A stretch of 34,706 bases of DNA. Source: a virus. Location of the stretch: the IMG/VR virus record IMGVR_UViG_3300045988_101705. One strand, 5' to 3'. Of the stretch, positions 14,233 through 33,611 are shown piece by piece (the stretch's first letter is position 1; each line of letters begins with the position of its first letter). Position numbers and translations under genes: made by a program. The notes under the pieces are model-generated. The model was given only the letters and a program-made list of their open reading frames with translations, was not told where the DNA came from and ran no database searches.

Positions 14233-14238
14233 TTCTGC

Positions 14239-15351: not shown

Positions 15352-15367
15352 GTGTTTTTCTCCTTTC

Positions 15368-15805
15368 TTACTGCTGCAGGTCTGCTTTGATTGCTTCCAG
15401 TTCTTCTTCCGTCATTCCTAACGTGTCGTAAACGGAAGGTGTGTTCGTGATCTTGATTGCTTCGGAACCGGCCGCGATCGTTCTCGAAAGTGTGATCTTT
15501 GTCTTTTCCTTCTCTGCCTTTCCGGATCCGTCCGGTTCTCCGTCGATATGCTCCACGCTCTGAATGGTTGCAGTTACGCCGCCGGCCGTAACCTTTGCGC
15601 CTGCTGCCGCTTCGTTGCAATATGTAACCGTCACCGTCTTTTTATCCTCTGATAATTCGCGGATCGGGCAAATAATAAAATTCTGGTTTTCGATCGCTTC
15701 GATTGCTTCCAGAAGGTCGGCCGCCTGCAACTGTCCGGCGTCCACCATGTCTTTACAGTTCTTCACGTCCTGCGCTGTTTTTAATACTTTCGGGAATCCT
15801 TTCAT
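15368..15805 (-). CDS. Hypothetical tail-module protein (145 aa)
   Basis: ORF track entry between the fibre-like gene and the DGR target. Confidence 0.6.
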   Translation of the reverse strand: MKGFPKVLKTAQDVKNCKDMVDAGQLQAADLLEAIEAIENQNFIICPIRELSEDKKTVTVTYCNEAAAGAKVTAGGVTATIQSVEHIDGEPDGSGKAEKEKTKITLSRTIAAGSEAIKITNTPSVYDTLGMTEEELEAIKADLQQ

Positions 15806-15825
15806 AGTGTCTTTTTCTCCTTTTC

Positions 15826-17937: not shown

Positions 17938-17938
17938 A

Positions 17939-18811
17939 TCACACCCCCAGATAACGGAACCTGTAAGAAACGGTAACGTTCAGGTAATCTTCGCCGGCGT
18001 CTGCCGTATATCGGATCGTGTTTGTTCCATGCTGCAACTGTATAAAGTCGCTGTCTTCGTCCAGATACTCGTTGATCTCCTGTTTTACGCCGTCCCTTAC
18101 AAGGTACACCGCTTTGTTATTTGTTTCTGTGGTAATAATCACCACGTCGCCGGCATTGATAGAAAAGGATCTGACTTCGTTTCCGATCTTGATAAATTCG
18201 CCGCTTTCTGCATGATATACGGCCGGGTTTATTACCGGTCCTTCCGCTTCCAGTGTGACGGTTATTCCGATATTGTCCGCAGCGCTGTCGTTCTCGATCT
18301 CTTTCAATACTTCGGCCGTTCTTTCCGCGAACGGCTCTTTCTCTTCCAGAAATTCGTGTGGCCATTCAAAAAGGCCCGTCCAACTTGCCATAGATACGGA
18401 AATATCTTCAAGATCCCGGAAGAACGGATCCGGGCAAAGAAGGGAAATACTGAAATTTCTAACCACTCCCGCTTCGTCAATGTCGATCCCTTCCACTTTG
18501 TAGTCAATCACGCGGGTTTCGTTGCCTTCTATGTAGGTGAAAAGGCCGGTTGACTTCGGTTTGAAGCATTTGTAAAGTAGATCCCTGTTTGCCTGATAGT
18601 CTCGTTCCATTTGTGCCGTTATTACAATGTTTCTTTGTTTTGTTGTGCTTCCCTGATACGTGGAACCGTCCACCATGGTATTTTCCGACGTTACAACGTT
18701 ATTCGACACCGTGTAAATACCGTCTACCGATACAAGGAAGAACGGTTCAAAGGAATAGTTAAATTCCACTTGAACCCCGTCTTCATTCTTGCAAATAATT
18801 CTTTTCGCCAT
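17939..18811 (-). CDS. Distal tail protein (Dit-like, 290 aa)
   Basis: Position immediately downstream of the tape measure gene, and size. Confidence 0.6.
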   Translation of the reverse strand: MAKRIICKNEDGVQVEFNYSFEPFFLVSVDGIYTVSNNVVTSENTMVDGSTYQGSTTKQRNIVITAQMERDYQANRDLLYKCFKPKSTGLFTYIEGNETRVIDYKVEGIDIDEAGVVRNFSISLLCPDPFFRDLEDISVSMASWTGLFEWPHEFLEEKEPFAERTAEVLKEIENDSAADNIGITVTLEAEGPVINPAVYHAESGEFIKIGNEVRSFSINAGDVVIITTETNNKAVYLVRDGVKQEINEYLDEDSDFIQLQHGTNTIRYTADAGEDYLNVTVSYRFRYLGV

Positions 18812-18814
18812 TTA

Positions 18815-21706
18815 TCAACCCCCCTGTAACTGTAAAACCATGTTTCGGGTTGCGTTTCGTGTCTGGCGGGCTGTCTCATACGGCGAAAGGGCCTTCGGGC
18901 TTGTAATGTTGACATTCTGAACAAAACTTTTCCCGCCGCCTTCTGCTGTTTCAAGTGCCGTATTCCTTGCCGAAGCCGTAAGCGGTGTTACAACCGCTTC
19001 GCCGTTCACCATCTGGATCAACTCCGGGCCTGCTTCTGCCATAATGGCTTGACCGTTTTTCAAAACGCCGCCCTTTGCCAGACGCGGAAGTGATACTTCG
19101 CCAACGTGTCCGATACTTACGCCCGGAATATCGTTGATAACGTCGATCGCGCCGTTAATGAAGCTGATCGCCTTATTCACCGCACGTTCTGCGGTTGCAA
19201 GGGCGTTGTTCATGGCTGACTTGAAGGCGCCGCCGATTGCTTCACCGATATTTGTTCCGACATTTGTAAAAATGCCCTTGATCGTGTTCCAGATCCCCGA
19301 AAAGAAGGATCCAATATTGCTAAACACGTTTTTAATATTCGTGTATGCTTCCGTGAATTTTGTGTAAAACCATGATCCAACCGTTGAAAATACGGACTTA
19401 ATATCTGTGTATCTATCGTTGAACCACTGGCCGATCGCGGAAAATACGTTTTTCACGTTCGTATAGGCATTTTGAAACATGGTTTGAAACCACGTCGCCA
19501 CGGTTGACAGGGCGTTTTTAATGTCCGTCCACCTGGCCGCGAACCACTGGCCGATCCCCGAAAAGATCGTTGTTATTGCCGTGTAGGCTGCGCGGAACTT
19601 GTCCGCAAACCACGCGCCGACGCCCGAAAAGATCGAAACAATCCCGGACCATATATCAGAGAAAATTTTCTTCACATTGACGCCGAACGTCTGAAAGAAT
19701 GTGATTATATAATTCACTACCGCCGTTATAAGATTTTTCACAATCTCAATCAGGTTTTTCAGTGCTGCTTCTATGTACTGGCTGAACCCGTCCAGATCGC
19801 CCCGGAATAGTGCCATAAATGCGCTAATAATGTTACTTACAAAGTCGATCGCATTTTTCACCGCTGAAACGATCGGCGCTACTGCTGAAAGTGCGCCCTG
19901 TATCACCGCCATAACGTAGGTCGTGAAAAACTGGAATACAGGCTTCAATTTTTCCATTAAATTTTTGAAACTTTCGCCCAACTGCTGCAAGATCGGTTTT
20001 ATTTTCTCGATTGTTTCCGAAACGCTCTTTTTAATCTCTGCGAAGGCTTTATCTACCATTTCGCGGAACCAGTCGCACTTCTTATACATCAATACGAAGC
20101 CCGCCACAAGCGCCACCACGGCCGCGACAACGGCCCCGATCGGGTTTGCTGATAAAATAGCCCACAAGCCTTTCCCGGCCGTTCCTGCCGCCTTGAATAC
20201 GCCCGATATTTTAGAAAATGCCCCGATCGCCTTCGATACTCCCGAAGAAAGTTTCCCGAAAATAATTAAAGCCGGCCCGATCGCTGCCACTACCGCGCCA
20301 ATCTTTACGATCGTTTCCTTCTGCGTGTCGTTCAGGTTCTTAAACCACTGTGAAAAGGCTTTTACCTTTTTCACCACGCGTTCCAGAGCTGGCGTTGCTG
20401 TCTGCATTAAGGTATTTCCAAGATCTGCGCCTGCTACTTTCAAATTGTTAAGCGCAACTTTTGCCTGATCTGGCGGATCCAGTGTCGCGTTGAATGTGTC
20501 TTCGACTACGTTTCCGTAATCTGATAAGGCGCCGGAAAGATCGTCGATAGAAAGGCGGCCTTCCCTGATCGCCTGCGTCATTTCTGCGGCGCCCTTCTTT
20601 CCGAATAACTCCGTCGCTGCCTGCAGTGCGTCTGTTTCGCTGCTTGCGTTTTTGATCTTCTCGATCGTTTCGCCCAGTGCGTCTTTTAGATCCTTTCCGT
20701 CCGCTGTCGCGTTCTGCTGCGCCTTCTTCAATCCTGCAAGCGCTGTTGTGGCGTCCACGCCGTTCGCTTCAAACTGTGCAAGTAAATTTACCGAAGACGT
20801 GAGATCAAGGCCCATTTCCTTTAATGTGGCGCCGTTGGTCTGTAATGTATTCTGCAGCGTGTCCATGGAAATTCCCGTGTCTTGCCCTGCTTTTGTAAGA
20901 AGGCCCAACACTTCGCCGGTGTGGCTGCTGTCAACGCCGAATTTCGTCATTATGGCGTCTACGCTGTCGATCGCGCCGTTTAAGTCCGTTCCGTTGATCT
21001 CTGAAAACTGAATGAATTTTGAAGAAAGGTCTTCAAGTTCTTTTCCGGTAGAACCGAAGCGGGTGTTTACCTCTCCGATCGCAATTCCGGCCGTTTCCGC
21101 TTCTGTTGGAAGCGAAGTAAAAACGGCGTCCATACTGTCTTGTAAGCCGTCCAACGCTTCCCCAGAAGCGCCCGTTTTTGTTATGATCGTATCGTAACCG
21201 GCGTCTAATTCATTAAATGCCGCGATCGAAGCGGTCCCGATCCCTGCGATCGCTCCTGTCACTGGAAGAAGTTTCTTTCCCAGTGCTTCGGACTTTTCGC
21301 CAATCTTTCCGGCGATCTCTCCCACCTTTTCAAGTGTTGAATTGCTGTCCTCTGCTGCCGTTTTCAGGTTTTTCAGGTCTGCTTCTGTCTTTACGATCTC
21401 TCTTTGCAAAGCCCGGTACTGTTCTTCCGACACTTCGCCGTTTTCAAACTGCTTCTGAACCTGTGCTTCTGCCGACTTCAAAACGTCCAGTTTTTCAGAA
21501 GTAGCGGCCACGGCTTCTTTTAGAAGCGTCTGTTTCTGTGCCAGAAGTTCCGTATTTTTCGGATCCAGTTTCAGGCCTTTTTCGACTTCTTTTAATTCTT
21601 TCTGCAGATCGCGCGACTGTTTATTGACGCCCGAAAGGGCTTTATCTAACTTCGTAGTGTCGCCGCCGATCTCAATGGTAATTCCTTTTATTGTGCTTGC
21701 TGCCAC
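18815..21706 (-). CDS. Tail tape measure protein (963 aa)
   Basis: Largest ORF, with a coiled-coil N-terminus, TM-like central block and repeated FSxIGxWF units. GTG start. Confidence 0.9.
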   Translation of the reverse strand: MAASTIKGITIEIGGDTTKLDKALSGVNKQSRDLQKELKEVEKGLKLDPKNTELLAQKQTLLKEAVAATSEKLDVLKSAEAQVQKQFENGEVSEEQYRALQREIVKTEADLKNLKTAAEDSNSTLEKVGEIAGKIGEKSEALGKKLLPVTGAIAGIGTASIAAFNELDAGYDTIITKTGASGEALDGLQDSMDAVFTSLPTEAETAGIAIGEVNTRFGSTGKELEDLSSKFIQFSEINGTDLNGAIDSVDAIMTKFGVDSSHTGEVLGLLTKAGQDTGISMDTLQNTLQTNGATLKEMGLDLTSSVNLLAQFEANGVDATTALAGLKKAQQNATADGKDLKDALGETIEKIKNASSETDALQAATELFGKKGAAEMTQAIREGRLSIDDLSGALSDYGNVVEDTFNATLDPPDQAKVALNNLKVAGADLGNTLMQTATPALERVVKKVKAFSQWFKNLNDTQKETIVKIGAVVAAIGPALIIFGKLSSGVSKAIGAFSKISGVFKAAGTAGKGLWAILSANPIGAVVAAVVALVAGFVLMYKKCDWFREMVDKAFAEIKKSVSETIEKIKPILQQLGESFKNLMEKLKPVFQFFTTYVMAVIQGALSAVAPIVSAVKNAIDFVSNIISAFMALFRGDLDGFSQYIEAALKNLIEIVKNLITAVVNYIITFFQTFGVNVKKIFSDIWSGIVSIFSGVGAWFADKFRAAYTAITTIFSGIGQWFAARWTDIKNALSTVATWFQTMFQNAYTNVKNVFSAIGQWFNDRYTDIKSVFSTVGSWFYTKFTEAYTNIKNVFSNIGSFFSGIWNTIKGIFTNVGTNIGEAIGGAFKSAMNNALATAERAVNKAISFINGAIDVINDIPGVSIGHVGEVSLPRLAKGGVLKNGQAIMAEAGPELIQMVNGEAVVTPLTASARNTALETAEGGGKSFVQNVNITSPKALSPYETARQTRNATRNMVLQLQGG

Positions 21707-21709
21707 CTG

Positions 21710-22317
21710 CTATTCACCGCCCCTTCGTTTGAACTTCTCGCGAATGGCCTTTCGGTCCGGTTCTGTTTGTGAAATTCGCCAACAATTTTCAAGGTATTTT
21801 CTGCCTTCCTTTGTCTGGTTCATTTCGTGAATAAACGCTTCGCGCATGAAGAAAAGGTATAGATCAAGGTCCAGTTCTTGCACCTGCCATATATTCAAAC
21901 CGGTGTAGTCAATCACCAGTTTTTCGCCGCGTGTGAGTGTTTTATAATACACCCCTTCGTTATCCCCGCCGGGATAGAAGGGGATCTTTAGTTTGGGTTA
22001 TTCTTTACGCCGCCCGCGAACTCCATGTAAGCGTCGATCAGCGCTTCCATTTCCTCGGTGTCGTAATCGTCCGTGATCTCTTTCGTCGTCACCTGCTCCC
22101 CGGTCATATTGTGGGAAAGAATTTCGGCGCAAAGGCCGCCCAGTGTGTCCATGGCGTCTTCTGCCGTCATGCTGTCCGTGTCCATTTCCTGCAGCGCTGA
22201 CAGTTTTTCAAACGTCTTTTTCATAGGCATTTTCACGATCAGTTTTCTATTGTCTTTCAGTGTTACGGTCATGAATGAACGCTTCACCTTGTTAAAATCA
22301 AAGCTTAAATTCGCCAC
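21710..22317 (-). CDS. Tail assembly chaperone G-T fusion made by -1 programmed frameshift
   Basis: The -1 frame is open from 21997 through the 21710..21952 ORF. The slip site C_CCA_AAC lies directly before the G stop codon. Confidence 0.7.
21988..22317 (-). CDS. Tail assembly chaperone G (109 aa)
   Basis: Position between the major tail and tape measure genes. Ends just after the slippery heptamer. Confidence 0.75.
   Translation of the reverse strand: MANLSFDFNKVKRSFMTVTLKDNRKLIVKMPMKKTFEKLSALQEMDTDSMTAEDAMDTLGGLCAEILSHNMTGEQVTTKEITDDYDTEEMEALIDAYMEFAGGVKNNPN
21991..21997 (-). promoter_or_regulatory. -1 frameshift slippery heptamer CCCAAAC
   Basis: X_XXY_YYZ pattern in the G frame (CCA AAC), followed directly by TAA. 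Confidence 0.7.
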
Positions 22318-22384
22318 GCTAATTTCTCCTTTCTACTAAATAACGGCAAGGCGTACCCGCCGCCCTGCCGTTATGGTTTTGCTT

Positions 22385-22936
22385 TTATACTGCTGCTGCT
22401 TCGCTCTCTGTCATTTCCTCTTCGTACATAAGAAGGGTTCCTTCTTCGTCCATAGGAAGGGCTGTGATCTCTTCGTCCACAACGGTTTCTTTGTCTTTCT
22501 CGAAAGATATTGTAAAGCCCGCCTGATTGTTTCCGACGATCATTACCCAAATATCGCCGTCCACCGCGTCTTTGTGGTGAAGACAAATAACATAGCGCGC
22601 GCCCTGTCTGTTGTCGATACCACCGATCTTTACAGTGCGGCGTTTCTTCGCCTTGTCTTCTGTAACTCTGGCGGTGTCGCAAAGGTATTTGAACTTGTTC
22701 CCGTCAAAGGTCATAATTCCCGTTTTCAGGGTTACTTCCTCTTCTGTTACGATCGTTTTGCTCTTCTTTCCAGTGTCGTCCTTTGCGGTGTAGAAAGAAG
22801 GTTTGTATTCCACGGACGCGCCGCCGGAAATATAGGCCATTAAATTTTCAGGCTTGCAAATATCTGCAGTCACCGGAACGGTCGAACCGTCGAAGGCCTG
22901 AATATACACATCAGCGCTTCCAAGAATTATTCTTTC
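22385..22936 (-). CDS. Major tail protein (183 aa)
   Basis: Position upstream of the chaperones. Start MERIILGSADVYIQ preceded by GAAAGGAGAACAGAGC. Confidence 0.7.
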   Translation of the reverse strand, partial: ERIILGSADVYIQAFDGSTVPVTADICKPENLMAYISGGASVEYKPSFYTAKDDTGKKSKTIVTEEEVTLKTGIMTFDGNKFKYLCDTARVTEDKAKKRRTVKIGGIDNRQGARYVICLHHKDAVDGDIWVMIVGNNQAGFTISFEKDKETVVDEEITALPMDEEGTLLMYEEEMTESEAAAV

Positions 22937-22953
22937 CATGCTCTGTTCTCCTT

Positions 22954-23292
22954 TCATTTTTTCTGTGTGATCGTGAAGTCGTAGGCCGTCTGTGTTGTGT
23001 CTTCCTGTGGTATCTGTGCTTGATACTTCCGAAACTCAACGTCGAACAAAACCTTTTCTTCGATCTGTTTTTCCAGATCCGGATCTGCTTTTCTCTCTGT
23101 GTAAAGTTCCAGTGATCCTTCAATCTCCCGGATCCGGTTTTTGGTATCGTCGCCCCGCTGCCTTTCCGTGGAAAGGTACACAAGAAACGGGGGATCCGGT
23201 ACCGGTTTTTTATTTGTTGCCGTGAACTGATTTCGCGCAATCGGAAGGCCTAACCCTTCGGCGCGTTTTATGATTTCTTCAAACGTCGTCAC
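22954..23292 (-). CDS. Tail completion / head-tail joining protein (112 aa)
   Basis: Synteny only. Confidence 0.5.
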   Translation of the reverse strand: MTTFEEIIKRAEGLGLPIARNQFTATNKKPVPDPPFLVYLSTERQRGDDTKNRIREIEGSLELYTERKADPDLEKQIEEKVLFDVEFRKYQAQIPQEDTTQTAYDFTITQKK

Positions 23293-23663
23293 CTTCCGAT
23301 CGCTCCTTTCACTTTGTCTTCAAATTCTGCCGCGGCTTTTTCCTCTACCGGGCGAATATGTTCGATCGCTTTTACTCTGCGTCCGTCGCGGCCGACGTGT
23401 CCTTTTTCAAGAAGGTGTGTCAACTGATAATCGGTCTTGTTGTAAACCGTGTTTCGTTTGGAACTCTTGCTTTCGTAAGTGTTCTTTTTGGCCCACCCCT
23501 TCGCATAAGAACCAGTTAAAACCGGGCTTGTGCTTTTCAACTCCTGAACGGCTTCTTCGGCCACTTCGTCGGTTGCTTTTTTGATCGCGTCCGCTACTTC
23601 CTGCGAATACTCGCTAAGCCCCTGCGCCAATTCCTGCGCAAGTTCACTAACCTTTATACCCAC
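23289..23663 (-). CDS. HK97 gp10-family tail component (124 aa)
   Basis: Synteny plus a typical ...GHVGRDGRRVKAIEHIRPVEE... C-terminal region. Confidence 0.55.
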   Translation of the reverse strand: MGIKVSELAQELAQGLSEYSQEVADAIKKATDEVAEEAVQELKSTSPVLTGSYAKGWAKKNTYESKSSKRNTVYNKTDYQLTHLLEKGHVGRDGRRVKAIEHIRPVEEKAAAEFEDKVKGAIGR

Positions 23664-23926
23664 TATCTGTTCCCTACTCTCTGCCCTGCGTACACTTCGA
23701 TCTTGTCGTTTGCTTTCGGGCCATACGTCCGGTACACCGTCAAGCGCTCCGAACCGTACAGAACGACGTCTTGACCGGTGTATTCGTTCGCGAAAACCTC
23801 AAACATATAGCGGGCTTTCATTCCCTTTTCACCTGCTGCCGCGTATTCATCACGGCCGATCGGGTTCACTGTCGCGAAAATCTTCACTTTCACGTCTTCT
23901 TCGCGGGTTTCTCCCTGATCTATCAA
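23663..23926 (-). CDS. Head-tail adaptor / head closure protein (87 aa)
   Basis: Synteny and size. Confidence 0.5.
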   Translation of the reverse strand: MIDQGETREEDVKVKIFATVNPIGRDEYAAAGEKGMKARYMFEVFANEYTGQDVVLYGSERLTVYRTYGPKANDKIEVYAGQRVGNR

Positions 23927-23931
23927 TGTTA

Positions 23932-24222
23932 TTACTGCGTCGATCTGTACTCACCGCCTTTTATTTTGGTTAAGATCATGTTGTAACTGTTCATTAACCG
24001 TTCGTGGTTTGCGTCCATGCTATAATTTGCCTTGACATAAGTTAGAACGGCTTCAATTATCAACGGATCTTCCGGGGCTTTCAGGTATTCTTCCGCGACA
24101 CCTATTCTTTTCAGGTCTGCCAGTGCAAAGTCAACGTAACGGAAAATGTCTTCGTCCAGTTCGTCCGTTGACATTTTCCGCGTTCGTAACTTTGCGGCCG
24201 CCTTTAACTCGTCAATCGTCAT
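23932..24222 (-). CDS. gp6-like head-tail connector (96 aa)
   Basis: The N-terminus MTIDELKAAAKLR...DEDI is typical of gp6/QLRG connector proteins. Located directly after the capsid gene. Confidence 0.6.
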   Translation of the reverse strand: MTIDELKAAAKLRTRKMSTDELDEDIFRYVDFALADLKRIGVAEEYLKAPEDPLIIEAVLTYVKANYSMDANHERLMNSYNMILTKIKGGEYRSTQ

Positions 24223-24247
24223 AAGAAGCCGCCTTTCCTGTTATTGC

Positions 24248-25459
24248 TTACGCTGACGCCGGGCGTTTTACTCTGATGAAGCCATTGTGGGCCGCTACGG
24301 CACCGCCTGCGAAAATGTCCGCGCGGTATGCGATCTGTCCCTGCTTGAACTTATAATCAAGGGACTTTCTGGCGTCAATGTCGGAAAAGATCGCCATTTC
24401 GTAGTTGCTTAACGGTCCGTATGCCATGCAGTAAACGATCGCCTTTGTCTGCGTGTCTGTGACTGCTCCACAAGCGGAATTGATAACATACGGTACACCG
24501 TCGATCGTGCCGGTGTTTCCATGGTTCACAATGGTATAAACCTTTCTTCCCTGCTTGTCGCGAAGTTTCGCGAAGGCTTTCAGATCTCTTTTGTTCAGGA
24601 TCAGAACTGCAGCGTCTTCCACGTCCTCGTCGCCGCCGAAATCATAGATAATATCGTCCAGTGTTCCGTCGTCGATCGCTGTTTTTTCAAGATCGGTTGC
24701 CGGGTCGATAACCTGATCTTTTGTTTCTGTAGGGTTGTGGAAAATTCCTTTGAACTTTCCGGAAGTTCCGTCACCGATCAGGATCTGGCGGCTCATGTAT
24801 CTACGGATCGCCTTTGTTACGGATCCTTCCACTACGCCGTCATAGTCCGCGTTCGGAAGCTTAATCATTTCTTCCGGTTCCTCGGTGTATGCGGTGATCT
24901 TCTGTTTCTCGATCGTTACGTAGCCGAAAACGGGTTCTGTTGCGTTGTAGTCGCCGCCTTCTACGGTGCCGCCTGCTCCGTCGCCGTAGGACTTAACATA
25001 ACCCCTCTGGTATGTCTCGCCACCGTTTAACGGAATAGATGTTACGCGATCCACAAGGGAAGAAACGTCGTTAAAGGTTTCTTTCACATCTGCCGCGCTG
25101 TGTGTCGGTGTTACGGTCTGACTTACGGAAAGGGCGTTCTTTACGCCGAAGGTTTTCTTTGCGGAAAACTTGACTGCCTTTCCGTCTTTGATGTTCTGTC
25201 CGCGTTCCTCTCTGGCCTTGTCCTTTACTTCTTCGCCTTTTTCGCCGCCGGTCGGCTCTGCGCCGCCTTCTGCGTCTTTTGCGATACCGGCCAACTTCTC
25301 GCGGTTCTTTACGTCGTCCAGAATACCGGTGATCGTGGTTGCTTCTTCCAGAAGCGCGTCAAGGTCTTTTCCTGCTGCTGCCTGCGCCTGTGTGTTCAGG
25401 TCTTTCAGGCGATCTTTTAATTCTTTGACGCTCATTTTTACAAGATCTTCGTACTTCAT
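24248..25459 (-). CDS. Major capsid protein, HK97 fold, with N-terminal delta/scaffold domain (403 aa)
   Basis: Coiled-coil N-terminus, size, and position after the ClpP-type protease. Confidence 0.85.
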   Translation of the reverse strand: MKYEDLVKMSVKELKDRLKDLNTQAQAAAGKDLDALLEEATTITGILDDVKNREKLAGIAKDAEGGAEPTGGEKGEEVKDKAREERGQNIKDGKAVKFSAKKTFGVKNALSVSQTVTPTHSAADVKETFNDVSSLVDRVTSIPLNGGETYQRGYVKSYGDGAGGTVEGGDYNATEPVFGYVTIEKQKITAYTEEPEEMIKLPNADYDGVVEGSVTKAIRRYMSRQILIGDGTSGKFKGIFHNPTETKDQVIDPATDLEKTAIDDGTLDDIIYDFGGDEDVEDAAVLILNKRDLKAFAKLRDKQGRKVYTIVNHGNTGTIDGVPYVINSACGAVTDTQTKAIVYCMAYGPLSNYEMAIFSDIDARKSLDYKFKQGQIAYRADIFAGGAVAAHNGFIRVKRPASA

Positions 25460-25462
25460 GTT

Positions 25463-26221
25463 TTATTCTCCTTCCATAATTGCTTTGACAGCAAGATCGC
25501 GGATCTCCTGTCTTTTTCTCGCGGCTGCTTCCTCTGCTGCCTGCTGCTCCGGATCGTGTCCGTCCTTTGCGATTTTTAATTTTTCCGGGACCTTGCAGCG
25601 GGCTTTCTTCATGTAGTCCCCGACTGCTGCCGCGTATTCCTTCGCTTCCGTGGTCTTTACCTCGAAATATTCCGCGGCTTTTTCCCCATTTAACCAACTT
25701 TCGGCGTCCATTAACGCTTCGATCTGGTCGATTGTTACACCTTCTTTCAGGTGTTCGGCGTATATGTTCAAAATTCCGGTTCTGATCTGGTCCAGATCGT
25801 CGGCCATTTTTCGCATATCTGCCGCGTTGCCTTCGCAATAACTCCACGGGTTATGGATCATTAAGAAGGCGTTTGAAGGAATTTCCGGTGGTTCGCTTCC
25901 TGCGAACGCAAGGATCGAAGCGATTGAACCGGCCAGACCGTCAACATAGACTTTTACGTTCGCTTTTGCTGCGTGGCGCTTAATCATGTTATAGATCGCG
26001 ATCCCGGCAAATACGGAACCGCCGCCGGAATTAACGTAAACGTTCAGATCTTTTCCTTCCTGCTCCGAAAGGAAATTCTTGATCGCGTCCGGGTACTGGT
26101 CTTCGTCTTGCCATGCTCCCCACCAGTCGGAAACAATGTCACCGTAGAAATACAGATCCGCGCTTGTCTCCGTTTGATTTTTAAAAGTAAAACCTTTAAG
26201 TGTTGGCATTTCTTTTTTCAC
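25463..26221 (-). CDS. ClpP-family prohead maturation protease (252 aa)
   Basis: VNSGGGSVFAGIAIYNMI...VDGLAGSIASILAFAG...MIHNPW. Confidence 0.85.
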   Translation of the reverse strand: MKKEMPTLKGFTFKNQTETSADLYFYGDIVSDWWGAWQDEDQYPDAIKNFLSEQEGKDLNVYVNSGGGSVFAGIAIYNMIKRHAAKANVKVYVDGLAGSIASILAFAGSEPPEIPSNAFLMIHNPWSYCEGNAADMRKMADDLDQIRTGILNIYAEHLKEGVTIDQIEALMDAESWLNGEKAAEYFEVKTTEAKEYAAAVGDYMKKARCKVPEKLKIAKDGHDPEQQAAEEAAARKRQEIRDLAVKAIMEGE

Positions 26222-27485
26222 CGCCTTTCATAATCACCGGCACGAACATTTTCAAAATTTGAATTGCCGTCGCCGCCTGCTGCCCTTCACCTGCTGCCGG
26301 CGGTTCTTCGGATCCGGATCCGGGACCTGCGCCGCCGTTTGCCTGTCCTGTCTGGTAAAGGCTTTGATCGTCTGCCTTCACATAGTTCAGACTTACCATT
26401 CTCACGTCACCGTCTTCGATCGGCTCATAATACATTAGTTCCCTGTATTCGTTGATCGTGATAATTCCGCGGTCGTACAGGGTAGAACCGATCGTGGCTC
26501 TTGTCTGTAACGTCGCGTATTGCAGCCGGTTAGAAGTGAAAATGATTTTGTTTCCGAAGCCGCGTTCGCGCTCTGTTAATAACTTGAAAGTAAATTCAAG
26601 GGATAACTGCAGGGCGATCGGCTCGATCACGCTTTCATAAAAGGCGTTCCACTCCGCTTCTGTGAACTTTGACATTAAAATGTTTTCATTCACGTTGTAA
26701 TAGCGGTATAGGTTGTCACGTAAATACTGGCTTTGTATCGTCGGAATGTTCGGCGTTCTCTGCGTGATTTCGTGAAACTCCATGGTATTATCAAGGCCGC
26801 CTATGCCGCCGTCGTTTTCGGCGCTCATGTATGCCGCCTGAAACTCCTGAACCTTCTTTTTCAGTTCGTCTTCGTCTGCGAAGTTGTTGTATTTCAGGTA
26901 GCCTTTTAAGTTTGCCGAATTTTTCACGGTATTTTTCAAGGCTTGCCCGGTGGCGTCCAGTAATTCAAGGGTTGTCTGTATCGCCTGATCCGGCGGTGTA
27001 CCTATAAAGCGTTTTTTACTGAACCGGGCGCGAATATGGATCACGCTCTGATATGGCAATACATACGTTTTCCCGTCGTAGTCCCAAGTGAACCGGAATA
27101 AAATATTTCCGTCGTCGTCTTCATAGATCCGGAAGGAAGACACCGTAAGCGGTACGATCTGTTTTACCTTCGTGAAGTCCTCGTTATACATCACCGCCGC
27201 GAAGGCGTTCGACTTTCTAACCAGTGTCGCCGCCATTTTGTAAAGTGCGTCGTATGCTGATAACTCCGGCGCCCACCTCAAAGAAAGAAGGCGGGCCAGA
27301 TAGTCGTCTTTTATTGTCATTCCGCGGGCGTCTTTTCTCATAACCTGCGGCGTTAATTTCGCCACGTTTACCGCTATGCAATTTTCGATAGATCCTATAA
27401 TGTCGCTATCGTCCAGACCGCCCCCGGCTGAATATTCACCGCGGATCGTGAAGATCGGGCTATACTTGAAACGCCTATAATTCAA
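26196..27485 (-). CDS. Portal protein (HK97 family, about 429 aa), start uncertain
   Basis: Size and position between TerL and the protease. The track start is a TTG with no SD. The frame is open 10 codons further upstream, behind a GGGGGGTGA SD-like run. Confidence 0.8.
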   Translation of the reverse strand: MNYRRFKYSPIFTIRGEYSAGGGLDDSDIIGSIENCIAVNVAKLTPQVMRKDARGMTIKDDYLARLLSLRWAPELSAYDALYKMAATLVRKSNAFAAVMYNEDFTKVKQIVPLTVSSFRIYEDDDGNILFRFTWDYDGKTYVLPYQSVIHIRARFSKKRFIGTPPDQAIQTTLELLDATGQALKNTVKNSANLKGYLKYNNFADEDELKKKVQEFQAAYMSAENDGGIGGLDNTMEFHEITQRTPNIPTIQSQYLRDNLYRYYNVNENILMSKFTEAEWNAFYESVIEPIALQLSLEFTFKLLTERERGFGNKIIFTSNRLQYATLQTRATIGSTLYDRGIITINEYRELMYYEPIEDGDVRMVSLNYVKADDQSLYQTGQANGGAGPGSGSEEPPAAGEGQQAATAIQILKMFVPVIMKGGEKRNANT

Positions 27486-27562
27486 AAAATCTTTTATAAT
27501 TCCCGTTTGTCTTCACCCCCCTGTTCTTCGTCCTGTAATTCCGGTTAAATTTCCATGCTTCA

Positions 27563-27604
27563 ATCGTACAAAAAAAGATCGTGAAATTCTGACCTACTTT
27601 CAGG
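27563..27604 (-). promoter_or_regulatory. Candidate late promoter copy b (18-nt motif + 19 nt + TACGAT) upstream of the portal gene
   Basis: Minus strand reads CCTGAAAGTAGGTCAGAA-TTTCACGATCTTTTTTTG-TACGAT. Confidence 0.45.
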
Positions 27605-27606
27605 CA

Positions 27607-27633
27607 GCAAAAAAGAAGGCCGAAGCCCTCTTT
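27607..27633 (-). terminator. Rho-independent terminator directly after terL
   Basis: Minus strand reads AAGAGGGC-TTCG-GCCTTCTT followed by a T run. Confidence 0.6.
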
Positions 27634-29310
27634 TTACGCTGCGTTTGTAAGTTGTCTCCCGATCTCTTTGTGGAATTTCATTTTCACGGTCAACGCGTCG
27701 AAGATTGACACGGCGCCGTCTATGTGTGCGCGCTTTTCCAGTTTTACCGGCTTCATGCGGCTGTCGTTTATGTTAATATCAACGGCCACGTTCAAAAGGT
27801 GCGCGCGAAGAAGATTATTTTCGCCCAGACAGTACGCCCCGTCTTTCAAGTCACCTTCAAAGGTATGTAATACCGGTGTAAGGTTTGTTCCCTGATATAC
27901 GTCGTCCATGTGAAAGCCCGCTTCTTTCATTTCCTGCACCAGATAGCCCGCACAATAACGGTCATAGCCTACTTTTAACGGTTTGATCTTGTAAACCTTT
28001 ACAAGTTCAATAAACCAGTTAAACACGTCTTTGTAGTCCACCTGATGTTCTCCGGATATTTTCAAGAAGCCTTGCTGTTCAAAAATGTTGTACGGAACAT
28101 TTTCTTCGTTGATCGCCACTTTGAAGCGTTCCCGCGGCATGAAGAATTTTGTAATAACATAGTTCTTCCCGTCCTTTTCGATAATGAGCGAAGCGGCCGT
28201 AAGGTCCGTCGTTCTGGAAAGGTCAATTCCTGCCACGCAATAGCACCCGCGGAAGTCTTCAAGGGTGAAGTGCTGTCCTGCTGCCTTTTCTACGTCCACA
28301 TAGTCAAGCCATGCAATCGAAGAATTTTGTTTGATATTGCAGAACTTTGTCAAGAACTCTGCTTTTGCTGCAAGTGATTTCTTTGCGACTGCGATCTTGT
28401 CTTCGTAGTATTCCCACAATACAGAAACGCCCAAGTTCGGGTTTGACTTCTCCAATTCTTCGCGGGTGTCCCACTTTTCCACGTCGTCAATGATAAACAG
28501 GAACGGAAGAAGGCGTTTTTCCGTGTCGCCCTTTCCTCTGCCTTTCAGGAACGCCGTTGATCGCTTCATAAGTTCGTCATAAATGCCGTCGTTCTCATAT
28601 CCTGCAGTGGACGTTGACAAAATAAGCGGTTGTTTTCTGGCTCCCAGTGCCGACGCCATAACGTCGTATTGTTTCAAGCCCTGATCGCCCGGCCATGCTT
28701 CCATTTCGTCGTTTAGAACAAAGTGTGGGTTGAAACCGTCGGACTTTTTAGAGTTGAACGCGATCTTCTTTATGGTTGTGTTGAACTCCTGAATATAAAT
28801 ATCCGAACGGCGTTTCTTGCTAATCTCGGAAAGTTCTTCGTCCTGCTGCACAATCTGGTAAAATGCGTCGTATGCAAGATCGGCCTGCTCCAATTTCGGG
28901 GCCAGACAGTACAGTTTCGCGCCGTATTCTCCGTCTATATATGCCATGTATGCCATGATCGCGGCGGCGAATAGGGTTTTACCGTTCTTTCTTGCAACTA
29001 CCAGAAAAACTTCCCTGAATTGCCGGTACCCGGTGTTTTTGTCCAGAATACCGAAGATCGCGGAAACGATCGCTTTCTGCCACAATTCCAACTTTAGAAG
29101 GTCGTTTCTGCCTTCTGAATGGTGACAGTAGTTTTCTATGAACTTGATCGCCTTGTTGGCCTTCTTTTGGTCGAAAACCCATTCCCCGTTCTTGATACCC
29201 TCAACCAGAATTTTATAGATCGCTTTGATCCATTTACCGGCCCGAATACGCCCCGACGTGATCGCGTCGTGGTATTCAAAAATATAATTATGTGCCTGCT
29301 TATTCATCAC
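27634..29310 (-). CDS. terL: Terminase large subunit (558 aa)
   Basis: Size, position after terS, and a Walker-A-like VVARKNGKT. Confidence 0.9.
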   Translation of the reverse strand: MMNKQAHNYIFEYHDAITSGRIRAGKWIKAIYKILVEGIKNGEWVFDQKKANKAIKFIENYCHHSEGRNDLLKLELWQKAIVSAIFGILDKNTGYRQFREVFLVVARKNGKTLFAAAIMAYMAYIDGEYGAKLYCLAPKLEQADLAYDAFYQIVQQDEELSEISKKRRSDIYIQEFNTTIKKIAFNSKKSDGFNPHFVLNDEMEAWPGDQGLKQYDVMASALGARKQPLILSTSTAGYENDGIYDELMKRSTAFLKGRGKGDTEKRLLPFLFIIDDVEKWDTREELEKSNPNLGVSVLWEYYEDKIAVAKKSLAAKAEFLTKFCNIKQNSSIAWLDYVDVEKAAGQHFTLEDFRGCYCVAGIDLSRTTDLTAASLIIEKDGKNYVITKFFMPRERFKVAINEENVPYNIFEQQGFLKISGEHQVDYKDVFNWFIELVKVYKIKPLKVGYDRYCAGYLVQEMKEAGFHMDDVYQGTNLTPVLHTFEGDLKDGAYCLGENNLLRAHLLNVAVDININDSRMKPVKLEKRAHIDGAVSIFDALTVKMKFHKEIGRQLTNAA

Positions 29311-29689
29311 GAAGCGCCGCCAATTTTGAAACTTTTTTCTTCTCTTTTGGCGGTAAATATTCGATCAACTGGTTAATAATTTGGGTATATTGCCGCGCGT
29401 ATTTTTCATAAATTGCCGTTGAAGGGTGGGCTTTTATGAATTTCTGCGAAGCGTTTTTCGTTTCGGTTGTCAGGCCTTCTTTTTTCAATTCTGTTTTGGC
29501 CTGCAGAAGTGCGACTTTCAGGAAGGCCGCTTCGTCAATCACTGAATTTACAAGGGTTCGCCGGTCCTCGTCTTCGATCCCCGCGAACATTTCAGAAAGT
29601 TTTGCTTTCTCTTTCTTTATCCTTCCTTCTGTCAGATAATTAGTTCTTTTTTGTGGTTTGTTTTTCGTTGTCGTCGTATTTTCTGGCAT
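29300..29689 (-). CDS. terS: Terminase small subunit (P27 family-like, 129 aa)
   Basis: Position between the HNH and terL genes, with a helical, basic N-terminus. SD AGAAGGGGGG. Confidence 0.7.
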   Translation of the reverse strand: MPENTTTTKNKPQKRTNYLTEGRIKKEKAKLSEMFAGIEDEDRRTLVNSVIDEAAFLKVALLQAKTELKKEGLTTETKNASQKFIKAHPSTAIYEKYARQYTQIINQLIEYLPPKEKKKVSKLAALRDE

Positions 29690-29814
29690 ATTTTAACCCC
29701 CCTTCTATGTGCGCGCGACTTGCAGAGTTTTTTTGACCTCACTCCCTCGGTTCTCTTTGGAAGGCCCGAAATAGAAATACCGGGGGGGTGGGGTTCGTGG
29801 AATGGAAAAATATT

Positions 29815-30138
29815 TTATTTGCTTTCGATCAAATTTCCTTTTGCGTCGAACGTGTAGCGCTTCGCCTTCGCCTTGTGCTGTCTGTTGTGGTGTTCATCAC
29901 ATAACAGTTCCAAGTTATCGAAGGACAACGCCACCGCCGGATCGTTTATGTTCTCCGGTGTCAATTCTTTTTTGTGGTGAACTATTATTCCGGGGTTGAT
30001 GTCTTCAACCCTTCGCGCTCCGGCCAGAACTTCGGCCATGCAACGTTCACACCTGCCGCACTGGAACCGGTAATATGCGTCGCGTGTCTTTCTCCACTCC
30101 TTCGACGTATAGAAACCGTTTGTCCATTCTTTCGCCAT
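29815..30138 (-). CDS. HNH endonuclease (packaging-associated, 107 aa)
   Basis: CGRCERC...IIVHHKKEL...NLELLCDEHHNRQH. Start MAKEW is preceded by GAAGGTGA. Confidence 0.85.
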   Translation of the reverse strand: MAKEWTNGFYTSKEWRKTRDAYYRFQCGRCERCMAEVLAGARRVEDINPGIIVHHKKELTPENINDPAVALSFDNLELLCDEHHNRQHKAKAKRYTFDAKGNLIESK

Positions 30139-30154: not shown

Positions 30155-30196
30155 ATTCTATCCAACGGCGCCGGCCTTTTCTGACCTACTTTCCTG
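30155..30196 (-). promoter_or_regulatory. Candidate late promoter copy c (18-nt motif + 19 nt + TAGAAT) upstream of the HNH gene
   Basis: Minus strand reads CAGGAAAGTAGGTCAGAA-AAGGCCGGCGCCGTTGGA-TAGAAT. Confidence 0.5.
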
Positions 30197-30551
30197 GCGC
30201 CTGCTGCCTGCTGCCGCCTTCTGGTTCTATGATCTCCATGTGTACCGCTATCAGATAACAGAACTCCTTCCGGTATTCGTAGAACAACCGGCGGCAACAA
30301 TACGTTTCCCCTAACAGCTCCCAAGGTGTGTTATATAACAGGCTTGTGTATAGTTTGTCGATAATGTGGCGCCGGACCTCTGGATCTGTTCCTTCCAGTG
30401 GCAATTCCTTTTTTGCTGCCTTTATCGCTTCCGCTGCCTTTCTGTCGAAGTCTGTATGTTTGCCCGCCCTGCGCCTGCTCTGCCGCTTCTGGTCGCCGTG
30501 AACGATCGCTTTTACTATTTTCTTTGTGTCTTCGTCTATCGTGTGCGCCAA
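30186..30551 (-). CDS. Hypothetical protein, positional candidate for a late-gene transcriptional activator (121 aa)
   Basis: It occupies the slot just upstream of the HNH/terminase genes where RinA/ArpU-type activators sit in Firmicutes phages. No motif was recognised with confidence. Confidence 0.3.
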   Translation of the reverse strand: MAHTIDEDTKKIVKAIVHGDQKRQSRRRAGKHTDFDRKAAEAIKAAKKELPLEGTDPEVRRHIIDKLYTSLLYNTPWELLGETYCCRRLFYEYRKEFCYLIAVHMEIIEPEGGSRQQAPGK

Positions 30552-30578: not shown

Positions 30579-31154
30579 TTATACTATCTCTGTACCTTCA
30601 AGGTACTTCCAGAACTCCGCTTCTGTTTCCCCGTCCGAAGTTCTTCTTCCTGCCATAAGATAACAACAATCATTTCCCCAGTACACGAACGGGGCTTCCG
30701 GACTTATTGCACACGGTCCGAACGGCTCCGTTTCTCCGTTTTCGTAGTCAATAGATTTCAGGTCGATCAGATCCAGAAACATTTCTGACACCGCGCAAAC
30801 GTTCCCTTTCTCTGCCTGTAAGATCCGGATCAATGTTTTTCCCTGCTGCTGCATGATGTTCGTTACTCTATAATCTATCGTGCAACGTTTGAAGGCTTCC
30901 GGAAGATTGAAGATCTCTTTCTGTTCAATTTCGTACTGGTTCCCGAAGTCTTTTTCTGCTTTGAATACTTCACCGACTGCCGGAAGTTCGCCGCATAATT
31001 CAATAACGGCCGCTTTGGCTTCTTTCGGGAACATTCCCGCTTTGAACCATAAAACCCACCAACCGGAAGAAAGGTAATAGCCTTCTTCCTCTTCGTCTGT
31101 TTCCGGCGTATGCCCTACCGTAAGGCCTGCGCCTGTGTATGCTGATTTCAACAT
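30579..31154 (-). CDS. Hypothetical protein (191 aa)
   Basis: ORF track entry. Confidence 0.55.
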   Translation of the reverse strand: MLKSAYTGAGLTVGHTPETDEEEEGYYLSSGWWVLWFKAGMFPKEAKAAVIELCGELPAVGEVFKAEKDFGNQYEIEQKEIFNLPEAFKRCTIDYRVTNIMQQQGKTLIRILQAEKGNVCAVSEMFLDLIDLKSIDYENGETEPFGPCAISPEAPFVYWGNDCCYLMAGRRTSDGETEAEFWKYLEGTEIV

Positions 31155-31184: not shown

Positions 31185-31682
31185 TTATTTCTTCCCCCTC
31201 TCTTTGTTTGCTTTGAAGAACTGGCACTTTTCACACGGCGCCCAGTCTACGGCCACACCTTCGCAATATCCGCACATTTTGAAAGCGTGTTCACAATTCA
31301 CCAGATCAAACCCTTCCCCGCGGGCCAGATAATGCCGGATCACTTCGCGGGCCTGTTCTGCTCCGTATGCCACCGCCGTTTTGTAGCCCTGCTCCCGAAG
31401 AAGCGCCATAAACTCTTCTTGTGCTTTTGTGGTCTTCCCTTTCCCGAATTTCATTTCGATATACAGACCATGGAAGCCGCGGCGCGGAACTGGTAAAGAC
31501 AGATCCGGAACGCCTGTTTTCATTCCTGCCGCCTTCAATACCGGCCCATTTGTCCGGATCCCTTCGTTCGGTATGTGGTGAAGAAGCCGTAATTCCGGAA
31601 CGTATTCTTCGTTCGCTCTGGCCCAGTTTATAAGGCCGATCTGTTCCGTTGTCTCGGAACGTTTCATGTTTGCAAGGTTCAT
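31185..31682 (-). CDS. VRR-NUC domain nuclease (165 aa)
   Basis: GVPDLSLPVPRRGFHGLYIEMKFGKGKTTKAQEEF matches the VRR-NUC PD-(D/E)xK core. A Cys-rich C-terminal tail follows. Start at MNLANM with SD AAGGGAGAAAAGG. Confidence 0.65.
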   Translation of the reverse strand: MNLANMKRSETTEQIGLINWARANEEYVPELRLLHHIPNEGIRTNGPVLKAAGMKTGVPDLSLPVPRRGFHGLYIEMKFGKGKTTKAQEEFMALLREQGYKTAVAYGAEQAREVIRHYLARGEGFDLVNCEHAFKMCGYCEGVAVDWAPCEKCQFFKANKERGKK

Positions 31683-31702
31683 TTTCCTTTTCTCCCTTCG
31701 TT

Positions 31703-32668
31703 TCAATTCCGCACCATGCGGGCGTATATGTAAAAGGCCGCCGTAACTCCGTTGTATTTCACTTCGGCGTCAAGGAATTTATAACCCGGATAGGCCTTTT
31801 CCATTTCGGCTTTTAATGCTTCGTAATCGTGGGCCATGCGCTCAACGGTCCTTTTTTTGAACTTTGAATAACTTCTGGTAGGTTCTTTCGGTTTTACAAG
31901 GTTCTTTGAACCTCTCCATTTTCTCTTCCCCTTCCTGTTGTTCATCATGTATGTAGCAACGCCCGAAAGAAGAAAGTCTTTATCTGGCTTTATGCGGCGG
32001 GTGTTGGATCTTTCCCCTTTTGTCCACAATCCTTCTAATTCGTCCCGGTTTATCCCCTGCCCCGTCATGATAATGTGGACGTGCGGGTGTTCTGCTCCGT
32101 CTACCACTGGAATAATTAAATACTTGATATTCTCCCGGCCTGCCTTTTTCTGTCTGTAATTTATCTTGCGAATAAAGTTCGCTATATCTCGATCGGCTGC
32201 CGCTTCATCTGCCGGAATGTGTTCTTTGTCCCATGTGAACGTACACCATAGATCGTTTTCGCCGAAATTTATATTTGCAAGGCGTATAAAATAGCGTCTT
32301 GAATTTTTGTCATTCAGATTTTTTTGTGAAGGTTTGCTTTCTCTGCCCTTCTTCGTGTGTGGAACGTCCGCTTTGTGACAGAACGACGGGTAGATCTGCG
32401 CTTCCAGTAATTCCGATCCGCTTTGAAGGTTCTTCGCCTTCGTGGTTGTGGTTCTGTAAAGGCTTTCCACTTTCCCTTCTTTCAGTAGCCGTTCCAGTTC
32501 CCATTCTTTTAATTTCTCCTGCTGCTCTTTCCACTGCTCTTCATAGTCCGGAACCTGCGGCGGGTGTTCCTTCTCAAAATTCTTTCTTGCTTTTTTCTGT
32601 ATGTCGCGATCCAGATCCACCGGGAACGCTTCTTCATAGTCGTAATTATCGAATGTCTTTCTTTTCAT
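31703..32668 (-). CDS. HUH-type rolling-circle replication initiator-like protein (321 aa)
   Basis: AEHPHVHIIMTG (an HUH motif like Rep_1 HPHxHvL), with upstream LWCTFTWDK and downstream GVATYMMNNRK. Confidence 0.5.
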   Translation of the reverse strand: MKRKTFDNYDYEEAFPVDLDRDIQKKARKNFEKEHPPQVPDYEEQWKEQQEKLKEWELERLLKEGKVESLYRTTTTKAKNLQSGSELLEAQIYPSFCHKADVPHTKKGRESKPSQKNLNDKNSRRYFIRLANINFGENDLWCTFTWDKEHIPADEAAADRDIANFIRKINYRQKKAGRENIKYLIIPVVDGAEHPHVHIIMTGQGINRDELEGLWTKGERSNTRRIKPDKDFLLSGVATYMMNNRKGKRKWRGSKNLVKPKEPTRSYSKFKKRTVERMAHDYEALKAEMEKAYPGYKFLDAEVKYNGVTAAFYIYARMVRN

Positions 32669-33130: not shown

Positions 33131-33584
33131 TGTCTTTTTCTCCTTCTTCGTTATTCAGTAATCTTTCTATTTCCGGCGGTAATTCTCCGAAGATCCGACG
33201 GCACTCTATAAGGGCCTTGCGAAGTTCTGCGTTTTCCTGCGCCGCTTCGTTAAGTTTCCTTCTATAATTGCCGCCCGCGTCTCGCGCCTGTTCCAGTAAT
33301 TCTTCCAGTAATTCTTCCAGTGCTTCTTTTTCTGCGTTCAGGTTGTCCGTTGTCTCGAAAAAGGCTTCTTTATACTCTTTCAGTTCCTTTTCTGCTGCTG
33401 CGGCCCGGCCTTCTGCTGTTGTGCGGTCGTAGTCTTCCGCGGCCACGGTTTCGACTAAATATATAAGATAGCCGCCGCTTGTCTGCCCCGTTGCTTCCAT
33501 CTGTAAAACAACCTTTTCAATGTTCTTTACATTGTCCGTTCCTACTACTGCATAAATGCGGCTTTTCTCATGTGTTTTTACCAT
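33108..33584 (-). CDS. Hypothetical coiled-coil protein (158 aa)
   Basis: ORF track entry. SD GAAAGGCGGGGAAAG. Confidence 0.55.
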   Translation of the reverse strand: MVKTHEKSRIYAVVGTDNVKNIEKVVLQMEATGQTSGGYLIYLVETVAAEDYDRTTAEGRAAAAEKELKEYKEAFFETTDNLNAEKEALEELLEELLEQARDAGGNYRRKLNEAAQENAELRKALIECRRIFGELPPEIERLLNNEEGEKDNGYTCTI

Positions 33585-33611
33585 TGACTTTCCCCGCCTT
33601 TCTGATATAAT
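33584..33611 (+). promoter_or_regulatory. Near-consensus plus-strand promoter, antisense to the early operon
   Basis: TTGACT (33584-33589), 16-nt spacer, TATAAT (33606-33611). Confidence 0.45.

Follow-up and report, generated by a model that had tools for sequence, protein, structure and literature searches.

A repeated promoter-like element at the heads of the late gene blocks of a Lachnospiraceae prophage, and its candidate activator

How does a temperate phage turn on its packaging, virion and lysis genes when a consensus promoter scan finds no strong canonical promoter in the late intergenic gaps? The question is raised by the window, the whole 34,706-nucleotide (nt) virus record IMGVR_UViG_3300045988_101705, which is a temperate siphovirus-like genome and is read as a prophage of Lachnospiraceae, a family of gut bacteria. 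The genes discussed here are on its minus strand unless otherwise stated. Three copies of an element, a, b and c, each made up of a conserved ‘box’ and a -10-like hexamer at a fixed distance from it, stand ahead of three gene blocks. These copies probably form one phage-specific promoter class that drives the late blocks for packaging, for the virion together with a diversity-generating retroelement (DGR), and for lysis. The protein that binds the box is most likely ORF121, the 121-residue product of the open reading frame (ORF) at 30186..30551.

The element and its anatomy

An earlier note on this DNA had described three copies of an 18-nt motif, each 19 nt before TAnnAT. Direct reading of the minus strand agrees: AGGTCAGAA followed by 18 nt and TAnnAT occurs three times in the window, always on that strand, and the gap from GTCAGA to TAnnAT is exactly 19 nt at copies a, b and c. 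The coordinates given in the note stand for copies b and c, whereas copy a had been placed 1 nt too high (its 18-mer starts at 12401). An exact 15-mer, GAAAGTAGGTCAGAA, is common to copies b and c, as had been claimed. The parts of the putative promoters Pc, Pb and Pa are as follows.

30172..30192, minus strand: Pc (copy c) box AAAGTAGGTCAGAAAAGGCCG, core AGGTCAGAA at 30187..30179; overlaps the TAG stop of ORF121
30160..30155, minus strand: Pc -10-like hexamer TAGAAT, 16 nt ahead of the HNH ATG (30138)
27580..27600, minus strand: Pb (copy b) box AAAGTAGGTCAGAATTTCACG, core AGGTCAGAA at 27595..27587; between terL and portal
27568..27563, minus strand: Pb -10-like hexamer TACGAT
12377..12397, minus strand: Pa (copy a) box AAAACAGGTCAGAAATTGCCG, core AGGTCAGAA at 12392..12384; in the interval between the DGR reverse transcriptase and holin genes
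12365..12360, minus strand: Pa -10-like hexamer TATTAT, 27 nt ahead of the holin ATG (12332)

Two of the copies run into the preceding gene. Copy c takes in the TAG stop of ORF121 (30188..30186), an overlap that the earlier note had also seen, and the 18-mer of copy a takes in the TGA stop of the DGR reverse transcriptase (12399..12397). For AGGTCAGAA-N18-TANNAT the three occurrences compare with 0.01 expected, and none of 100 dinucleotide-preserving shuffles gives three; since all of them also run along the gene direction, the element is non-random and strand-specific. A scan of the window with the 15-mer pattern GAAARYAGGTCAGAA finds it exactly three times, only on the minus strand; with up to two mismatches allowed, 0.32 matches are expected and none of 100 shuffles reaches five. 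The looser pattern TCAGAA-N18-TAnnnT adds no further copy on either strand of the window.

The anatomy of the element was taken from 18 non-redundant sites, with the hexamer numbered -12 to -7; the pattern by which the sites were collected itself fixed T-36, AGAA at -34 to -31, T-12, A-11 and T-7. The conserved element is AAA-N2-AGGTCAGAA-WT-N3-CG, some 21 bp from -44 to -24, with the core at -39 to -31. Positions that the pattern left free are strongly conserved: A at -44 to -42 (15–18 of the 18 sites), A-39 and G-38 (16 each), T-29 (14), C-25 (17), G-24 (16) and A-8 (15). Between -23 and -13 the spacer shows next to no constraint. A degenerate dyad, GGTCA-N4-TGACC, is centred near -31.5, with a strong left half and a weak right half. 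The CCTG/CAGG mini-palindrome at the start of the 18-mer was dropped as a part of the element, since these first 3–4 nt vary among relatives.

T-12, A-11 and T-7 are the positions that sigma factors of the sigma-70 family read most strongly. All three are present, although in the 18-site set they were fixed by selection. Selection-independent support for the -10 comes from 1.18 Mb of related loci searched on both strands, in which TAnnnT lies exactly 18 nt after GGTCAGAA in 22 of 23 distinct occurrences; the sole exception is some 9.6 kb downstream of ORF121, at the outer edge of the L193 locus (related loci are given L numbers). No TTGACA-like -35 hexamer is found 16–18 bp upstream of the -10 at the three sites, and the consensus promoter scan reports none; the hexamers at that distance are CAGAAN or TCAGAA. 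As the earlier note had supposed, the conserved block takes the place of a normal -35.

Conservation in related phages

Loci with ORF121 homologues were drawn from IMG/VR, GenBank and GTDB, and holin-anchored loci were added. Relatives whose ORF121 is 35–77% identical carry the element at equivalent positions, and the spacing between box and hexamer stays fixed while the flanking genes and the spacer diverge strongly. Conservation at equivalent positions, set beforehand as one test by which the proposal could fall, is thus what is seen.

The widest conservation is that of copy b, which occurs in all ORF121-homologue lineages whose terL–portal gap was among the DNA analysed (ORF121 35–100% identical), with the block always 19 nt from TAnnnT and with four variants of the core. 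Five lineages (the window group, L192, L012-L031, L011 and L134) have copy c where ORF121 meets HNH. Copy a is kept in close relatives ahead of their lysis cassettes (L153-L159), and it also precedes unrelated lysis cassettes in L190 and in L061/L127, phage of the L013 type in which the cassette consists of two small membrane proteins and a GH25/LysM-like endolysin. A fourth site in L153, GTTCAGAAG...TAATAT at 13599, lies antisense within a gene, without the conserved positions that flank the core, and was put down to chance.

Two scans of IMG/VR with exact patterns (14–15 specified bases) returned at least 120 matches, and among the matches listed most were chance hits or unrelated contigs. 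They could be used only after a blastx filter against the proteins of the window, and the informative ones were confined to human-gut contigs with terL, portal or ORF121 homologues. A megablast search of the window against GenBank phages gave no match. Prophages with an ORF121 98–99% identical to that of the window are present in a Clostridiales bacterium that is uncultured and in an isolate of Lachnospiraceae. Locus L193 comes from the Lachnospiraceae isolate MGYG-HGUT-00092 (contig CABIZF010000005), and its ORF121 is 99% identical. More distant ORF121 relatives occur in Roseburia, Acetatifactor and other Lachnospiraceae, with a few in Clostridium, Ruminiclostridium and Christensenella.

The fixed spacing, the conservation, the -10 and the missing -35 all support the suggestion of the earlier note that the copies are a phage-specific, activator-dependent promoter class.

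Late gene blocks, terminators and ORF121

The genes are ordered replication initiator, VRR-NUC, a 191-residue ORF, ORF121, copy c, HNH, terS, terL and copy b, followed by portal, head and tail genes, the DGR, copy a, holin and endolysin. Gene annotation scans thus put copies c, b and a ahead of HNH-terS-terL, the portal and structural genes, and holin–endolysin, respectively, the arrangement that had been described from the letters. The units are called late on their gene content, and transcription would begin at each of the three copies.

31703..32668, minus strand: replication initiator
31185..31706, minus strand: VRR-NUC
30579..31154, minus strand: 191-residue ORF without assigned function
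30186..30551, minus strand: ORF121, candidate late activator or specificity factor; last gene of the replication/early cluster
27634..30138, minus strand: proposed transcription unit 1 (HNH, terS, terL)
29815..30138, minus strand: HNH endonuclease
29300..29689, minus strand: terS
27634..29310, minus strand: terL
27606..27635, minus strand: intrinsic-terminator-like hairpin with U6, between the terL stop and the Pb box; minimum free energy -24.1 kcal/mol (81-nt stretch)
12397..27506, minus strand: proposed transcription unit 2 (portal, structural genes, tail genes, DGR)
14239..15351, minus strand: DGR target with an Mtd-like/FGE-sulfatase fold; variable repeat (VR) at 14248-14374
13775..14188, minus strand: Avd
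13624-13750, minus strand: DGR template repeat (TR), 90% identical to VR over 127 nt
12397..13452, minus strand: DGR reverse transcriptase
12367..12420, minus strand: hairpin enclosing the Pa box; -26.1 kcal/mol, z-score -4.4, equalled in 0 of 200 shuffles
10039..12344, minus strand: proposed transcription unit 3 (holin and endolysin)
11844..12332/12344, minus strand: holin
10039..11988, minus strand: endolysin
9973..9947, minus strand: terminator-like hairpin closing unit 3
5792..6205, plus strand: HTH_3 repressor-like protein
6424..8205, plus strand: serine recombinase

Among the structural ORFs, scans covered the portal and the DGR-linked tail protein; the protease, capsid, head–tail, major-tail and tape-measure ORFs were placed by position.

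The Pb box starts 5 nt past the U-run of the hairpin that follows terL. An equivalent hairpin and T-run follow terL in L192 and L013, again with the box 3' of it. At copy a the U-rich tail of the hairpin (12366..12355) contains the Pa -10, and this hairpin is read as a terminator that overlaps the promoter. Copy c has no U-tract in any lineage. Since terminators lie before or over copies a and b, the genes downstream need a new promoter, and since the units are set apart by the terminators that follow terL and the DGR reverse transcriptase, each unit needs a copy of its own. The late units are therefore read as closed by terminators and reopened by one promoter class, with overlaps between the two that sometimes save space. 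In L032 (6195-6250) and L196 (12945-13005) the copy b box is inside the terminator hairpin (z -4.7 and -5.9, respectively), and in L032 and L196-L202 the U-tract of the terminator doubles as the promoter spacer, the hexamer following it.

ORF121 has a TTG start, a mass of 14.1 kDa and a basic isoelectric point (pI) of 8.97. It is the only gene that always directly precedes HNH; the 191-residue ORF and VRR-NUC upstream come and go, and the homologues of ORF121, fused forms included, hold the same slot. The family falls into 81 clusters at 90% identity, no member of which is named beyond ‘hypothetical protein’. A profile search of 1.84 billion representative proteins found about 74 family representatives at 50% identity, a narrow family without a bridge to annotated ones. 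Those homologues that could be located in genome assemblies are almost all from Lachnospiraceae and other Clostridia. The AlphaFold2 model is all-helical, with five helices and a predicted local distance difference test (pLDDT) score of 85; the model of the C-terminal domain has a score of 87. A pattern in the protein, ‘sRRxFYxYRkxF...VAxxMG’, resembles a helix-turn-helix (HTH), though by eye only.

The fused forms come from metagenomic phages. P0083 (L206 3754-4416) and P0085 (L207 5255-5914) lie between the replication initiator and HNH and join an ORF121-like domain to an extra C-terminal domain of some 100 residues, which consists of a coiled-coil-like linker and ‘...DSExRQIIxxxYxDPxGRxxWQQVAxxM...YTADYCR’. 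The extra domain has no Pfam match in either protein; for P0083 a word-indexed search gave no matches and tblastn against the window only E >= 0.6.

A predicted helix of ORF121, the most conserved in its C-terminal region, varies in sequence together with the core of the box.

Core GGTCAGAA: helix CRRLFYEYR, in the window, L192, L011, L013 and L134 (five lineages)
Core TATCAGAA: helix CRSLFY, in L194 and L032
Core CGTCATTC: helix YRGQFYQYR, in L196-L202
Core TGGCACAA: helix SRGTFYTYAR, in L204 and L205

The change from arginine to serine at residue 88 alongside GG to TA fits what would be predicted for an arginine that contacts the bases. ORF121 is thus linked to the box indirectly, by its slot, size and charge, by its constancy before HNH and by the co-variation of box and helix.

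A mechanism can be outlined on these sequence comparisons. The sigma-A polymerase of the host would recognise the -10, TAnnAT, and by itself would use such promoters poorly. A phage protein on the box would recruit or retain the polymerase, replacing the contact of sigma region 4 with a -35. The box-bound protein would most probably be ORF121, and in view of the partial dyad it may bind as a dimer. ORF121 would be made from the early/replication operon, so that its accumulation would time the switch, and the three promoter copies would then start the packaging, virion and lysis units, insulated from one another by terminators.

Some further features of the window touch these gene blocks. The box is missing from the 125-nt non-coding gap between HNH and terS (29690..29814, minus strand); a cos site near the HNH–terS gap is common in such HNH-terminase phages. 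The start of the portal gene is probably ACG at 27506..27504 (minus strand), with a Shine-Dalgarno sequence, GGGGGTGA, at 27520..27513, 6 nt upstream. An in-frame TGA (27515..27513) closes the portal frame just ahead of this ACG, and the first canonical start, TTG at 27485, is 27 nt from the Shine-Dalgarno sequence. In alignment A3 the portal start column is ACG in six lineages (the window, L192, L013, L011, L111 and L032), ATG in L194 and L201, GTG in L196 and TTG in L204/L205, and the codons after the start are conserved as G-I/L-I-K/R-D-F/L. The DGR that ends the tail module is complete (12397..15351, minus strand).

Outside the late blocks, the early region has a near-consensus sigma-A promoter at 33584..33611, TTGACT-16-TATAAT with a preceding TG (11 of 12 matches); it is on the plus strand, opposite to the early genes, and may belong to a divergent early/lysogeny switch. 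A D12-class N6-adenine DNA methyltransferase is split into two ORFs within 2586..3389 on the minus strand, 3009..3389 corresponding to the N-terminal and 2586..2954 to the C-terminal portion of the Pfam model, a split suggestive of a frameshift, a pseudogene or an assembly error. At 710..1066 there is an ORF for a short Dam-like fragment.

Alternatives and known late regulators

Several observations weigh against a promoter class read by ORF121. Copy c is absent from L194-L205, in which the ORF121 stop abuts the HNH start. The copy c hexamer is 11–16 nt from the HNH start codon, and in the L013-type phages and L011 the Shine-Dalgarno sequence follows the hexamer and precedes the expected start site, a layout in which the Pc transcript would carry HNH almost leaderless. 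Translation of HNH from Pc transcripts may therefore be poor, and their main use may be for terS and terL, or HNH may depend on read-through out of ORF121. The co-variation of box and helix draws on some four groups of lineages, which are phylogenetically not independent of one another, and the hairpins over copy a and over copy b of L032 and L196 allow a reading at the RNA level. Further, ORF121 matches no Pfam, NCBIfam or PHROG family, scans of 32 homologues came up empty as well, and ORF121 and these homologues together have no Pfam or NCBIfam match to RinA, ArpU, Sigma70_r4, DUF1492 or LtrC at E <= 1. Comparison of the ORF121 alignment A2 with 80alpha RinA by hhalign gave a probability of 0.3%, the LtrC and ArpU profiles not being directly compared, and the ORF121 profile found only ribosomal-protein noise among PDB sequences. 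Foldseek searches with the full-length model gave nothing significant in the PDB (best E 0.6) and only uncharacterised phage proteins in BFVD (best E 0.013). With the C-terminal model, the sole match in the two databases was a DeoR–operator complex, 8r7y_A (E 4.8, TMq 0.55). There being no significant Foldseek or family match, a DNA-binding fold of ORF121 is not demonstrated. The earlier note had placed ORF 30186..30551 in the slot of late activators of the RinA/ArpU type; the slot is indeed the one it occupies, but no likeness to RinA, ArpU or sigma region 4 was found in sequence or fold.

It is unlikely, though the best placed of the alternatives, that real promoters at these sites are recognised by an alternative sigma-like factor with the box as its -35, whether a host sigma or ORF121 as a minimal sigma-like subunit or a surrogate of sigma region 4. 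The element is strictly bipartite and rigidly spaced, with a core centred at -35, and the late promoters of SPO1 have a similar layout (CGTTAGA, about 18–19 bp, GATATT). Sigma factors also recur among the sub-threshold Foldseek matches of ORF121, namely sigma-E, RpoS region 2 and T4 gp55 in the PDB and phage sigma-like factors in BFVD; with template-modelling (TM) scores around 0.25 these are a hint at most. However, every such match has E > 0.5 and a TM score of about 0.2–0.3, none of 33 family members has a Sigma70_r2 or Sigma70_r4 Pfam match at E <= 1, and 121 residues are too few for sigma regions 2 and 4 together. The -10 follows the sigma-A consensus pattern, and the box has a partial dyad and covers about 21 bp, more than the footprint of sigma region 4. 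For a host sigma in particular, the box would not be expected to vary among related phages in step with a phage protein, as it does, and none of the consensus sequences of sigma-H, -E, -K, -F/G, -B and -D known to us fits the box or the spacing.

Less probable is an RNA-level role, in which the block is part of a terminator or a target for antitermination or processing, and late expression comes from read-through of one long transcript. Control of late genes by antitermination is common among phages, the copy a box lies within a -26 kcal/mol hairpin with a U-rich tail, and the copy b box of L032 and L196 is within a hairpin too. Against this, a target of an antiterminator should have a hairpin and U-tract at every copy, and it is only at copy a and at copy b of L032 and L196 that the box is embedded in one. 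The copy b box of the window, L192 and L013 is 3' of a complete terminator and U-tract, so that binding there could not prevent termination, and it is on this position of the box relative to the terminators that an RNA antiterminator was rejected. The missing U-tract at copy c points the same way. Moreover, the box takes inconsistent places in the hairpins (loop, 3' arm or outside), so that there is no common RNA structure, and the invariant T-A-N3-T exactly 19 nt downstream is left unexplained. Scans of the window for Rfam families and for tRNAs were both empty.

Still more improbable is that the box is the operator of a repressor that silences weak late promoters, for instance in the lysogen, or is a packaging or recombination site. 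An operator could well overlap the polymerase-binding region and have a partial dyad, as the box does, and the window encodes an HTH_3 repressor-like protein and a serine recombinase. However, promoters with neither a -35 match nor an extended -10 would be weak and in little need of repression, and the copies are only at the heads of late units, with none at the lysogeny switch. The box also tracks ORF121 and not the lysogeny module, which differs between near-identical relatives. A cos or pac site would be single, rather than threefold with one copy before holin. Finally, a chance or merely historical duplication without function has next to no probability and is effectively refuted by the shuffle statistics and by a spacing that stays fixed across lineages with differing spacers and flanking genes, even if GGATAGAATG at copy c resembles the ORF121-stop/HNH-start junction of distant relatives, GGATAGAATGGCG, so that part of the copy c hexamer could be inherited sequence.

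The activator-dependent promoter class can be compared with known systems of late control. In temperate phages of Firmicutes, the terS promoters are controlled by late regulators of the Ltr superfamily (RinA, ArpU, LtrA/sigma70_r4, LtrB/DUF1492 and LtrC; PMC3152322, PMC3753634, PMC13123087), small basic proteins of about 130 residues and 15 kDa (PMC3753634). ORF121 is similarly small and basic and is likewise the last gene of the early cluster, immediately ahead of the packaging genes. A sigma-A-type -10 is another shared trait, and the specificity of each Ltr regulator for its own control region is mirrored here by the co-variation of box and helix. The differences are also marked. ORF121 has no detectable similarity in sequence or fold to the five families. 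Two further Ltr traits are a conserved C-terminal domain with a structure like that of sigma-70 region 4, for which the confident ORF121 models gave no significant Foldseek match, and a regulator that is both necessary and sufficient for activation of its late promoter, for which the four classes of box and helix give indirect support. The site is a single box of about 21 bp at -35, unlike the upstream repeats of Phi13 at -107 to -42 or the RinA site more than 155 bp upstream. There are three copies separated by terminators, rather than the single late promoter of the Ltr papers, and the terminators overlap promoters, which they do not in the published Ltr systems. TP901-1 Alt activates the late promoter of a lactococcal phage upstream of terS and recognises repeats at -76 to -32 at that one promoter (PMC3152322, PMC13123087); the phage in the window resembles TP901-1 as a temperate Firmicutes phage with a candidate phage activator for a putative late promoter ahead of terS, but would use a single box at three promoters.

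In the use of several late promoters, each with one activator box fixed relative to a sigma-70 -10 and a poor -35, there are parallels in phages of Gram-negative bacteria, namely P2 Ogr, Mu C and P1 Lpa (PMC3152322). Ogr is a zinc protein that binds at -55, Mu C binds from -30 to -55, and Lpa binds at -22 with the host protein SspA (PMC3152322). These activators are unrelated, the box here is centred near -31 to -35, and the host is a Gram-positive anaerobe.

A box of about 9 bp also replaces the -35 at a fixed distance from a sigma-70 -10 in the middle promoters of T4 that depend on MotA and AsiA, where, by ‘sigma appropriation’, the box is read by a phage protein that takes the role of sigma region 4. 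The resemblance to MotA-dependent promoters is one of box position; the sequence of the box and the spacing differ, and no homologue of MotA or AsiA was seen among the window ORFs scanned.

The promoter class represents a familiar kind of phage late control in a new form and adds no new principle conceptually. Tentatively, and with rather less than even confidence, ORF121 could be taken further, as the founder of a new family of late activators that reads a box at the -35 position, serves a regulon of three promoters separated by terminators, and has split into four or more classes of matched protein and box specificity (R88 with GG and S88 with TA among them). If so, these phages would hold natural orthogonal activator–promoter pairs for gut Clostridia that are genetically intractable.

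Lachnospiraceae are dominant commensals of the human gut, and we know of no study of late-gene control in their phages. If confirmed, the promoter class would provide a rule, based on sequence, by which the late promoters and transcription units of a set of gut prophages could be located, and would assign a function to the unannotated ORF121 family. Compact pairs of promoter and activator with distinguishable specificities would be available as genetic tools for Clostridia, and the picture of ‘one Ltr, one late promoter’ that comes from the staphylococcal phages would not be general.

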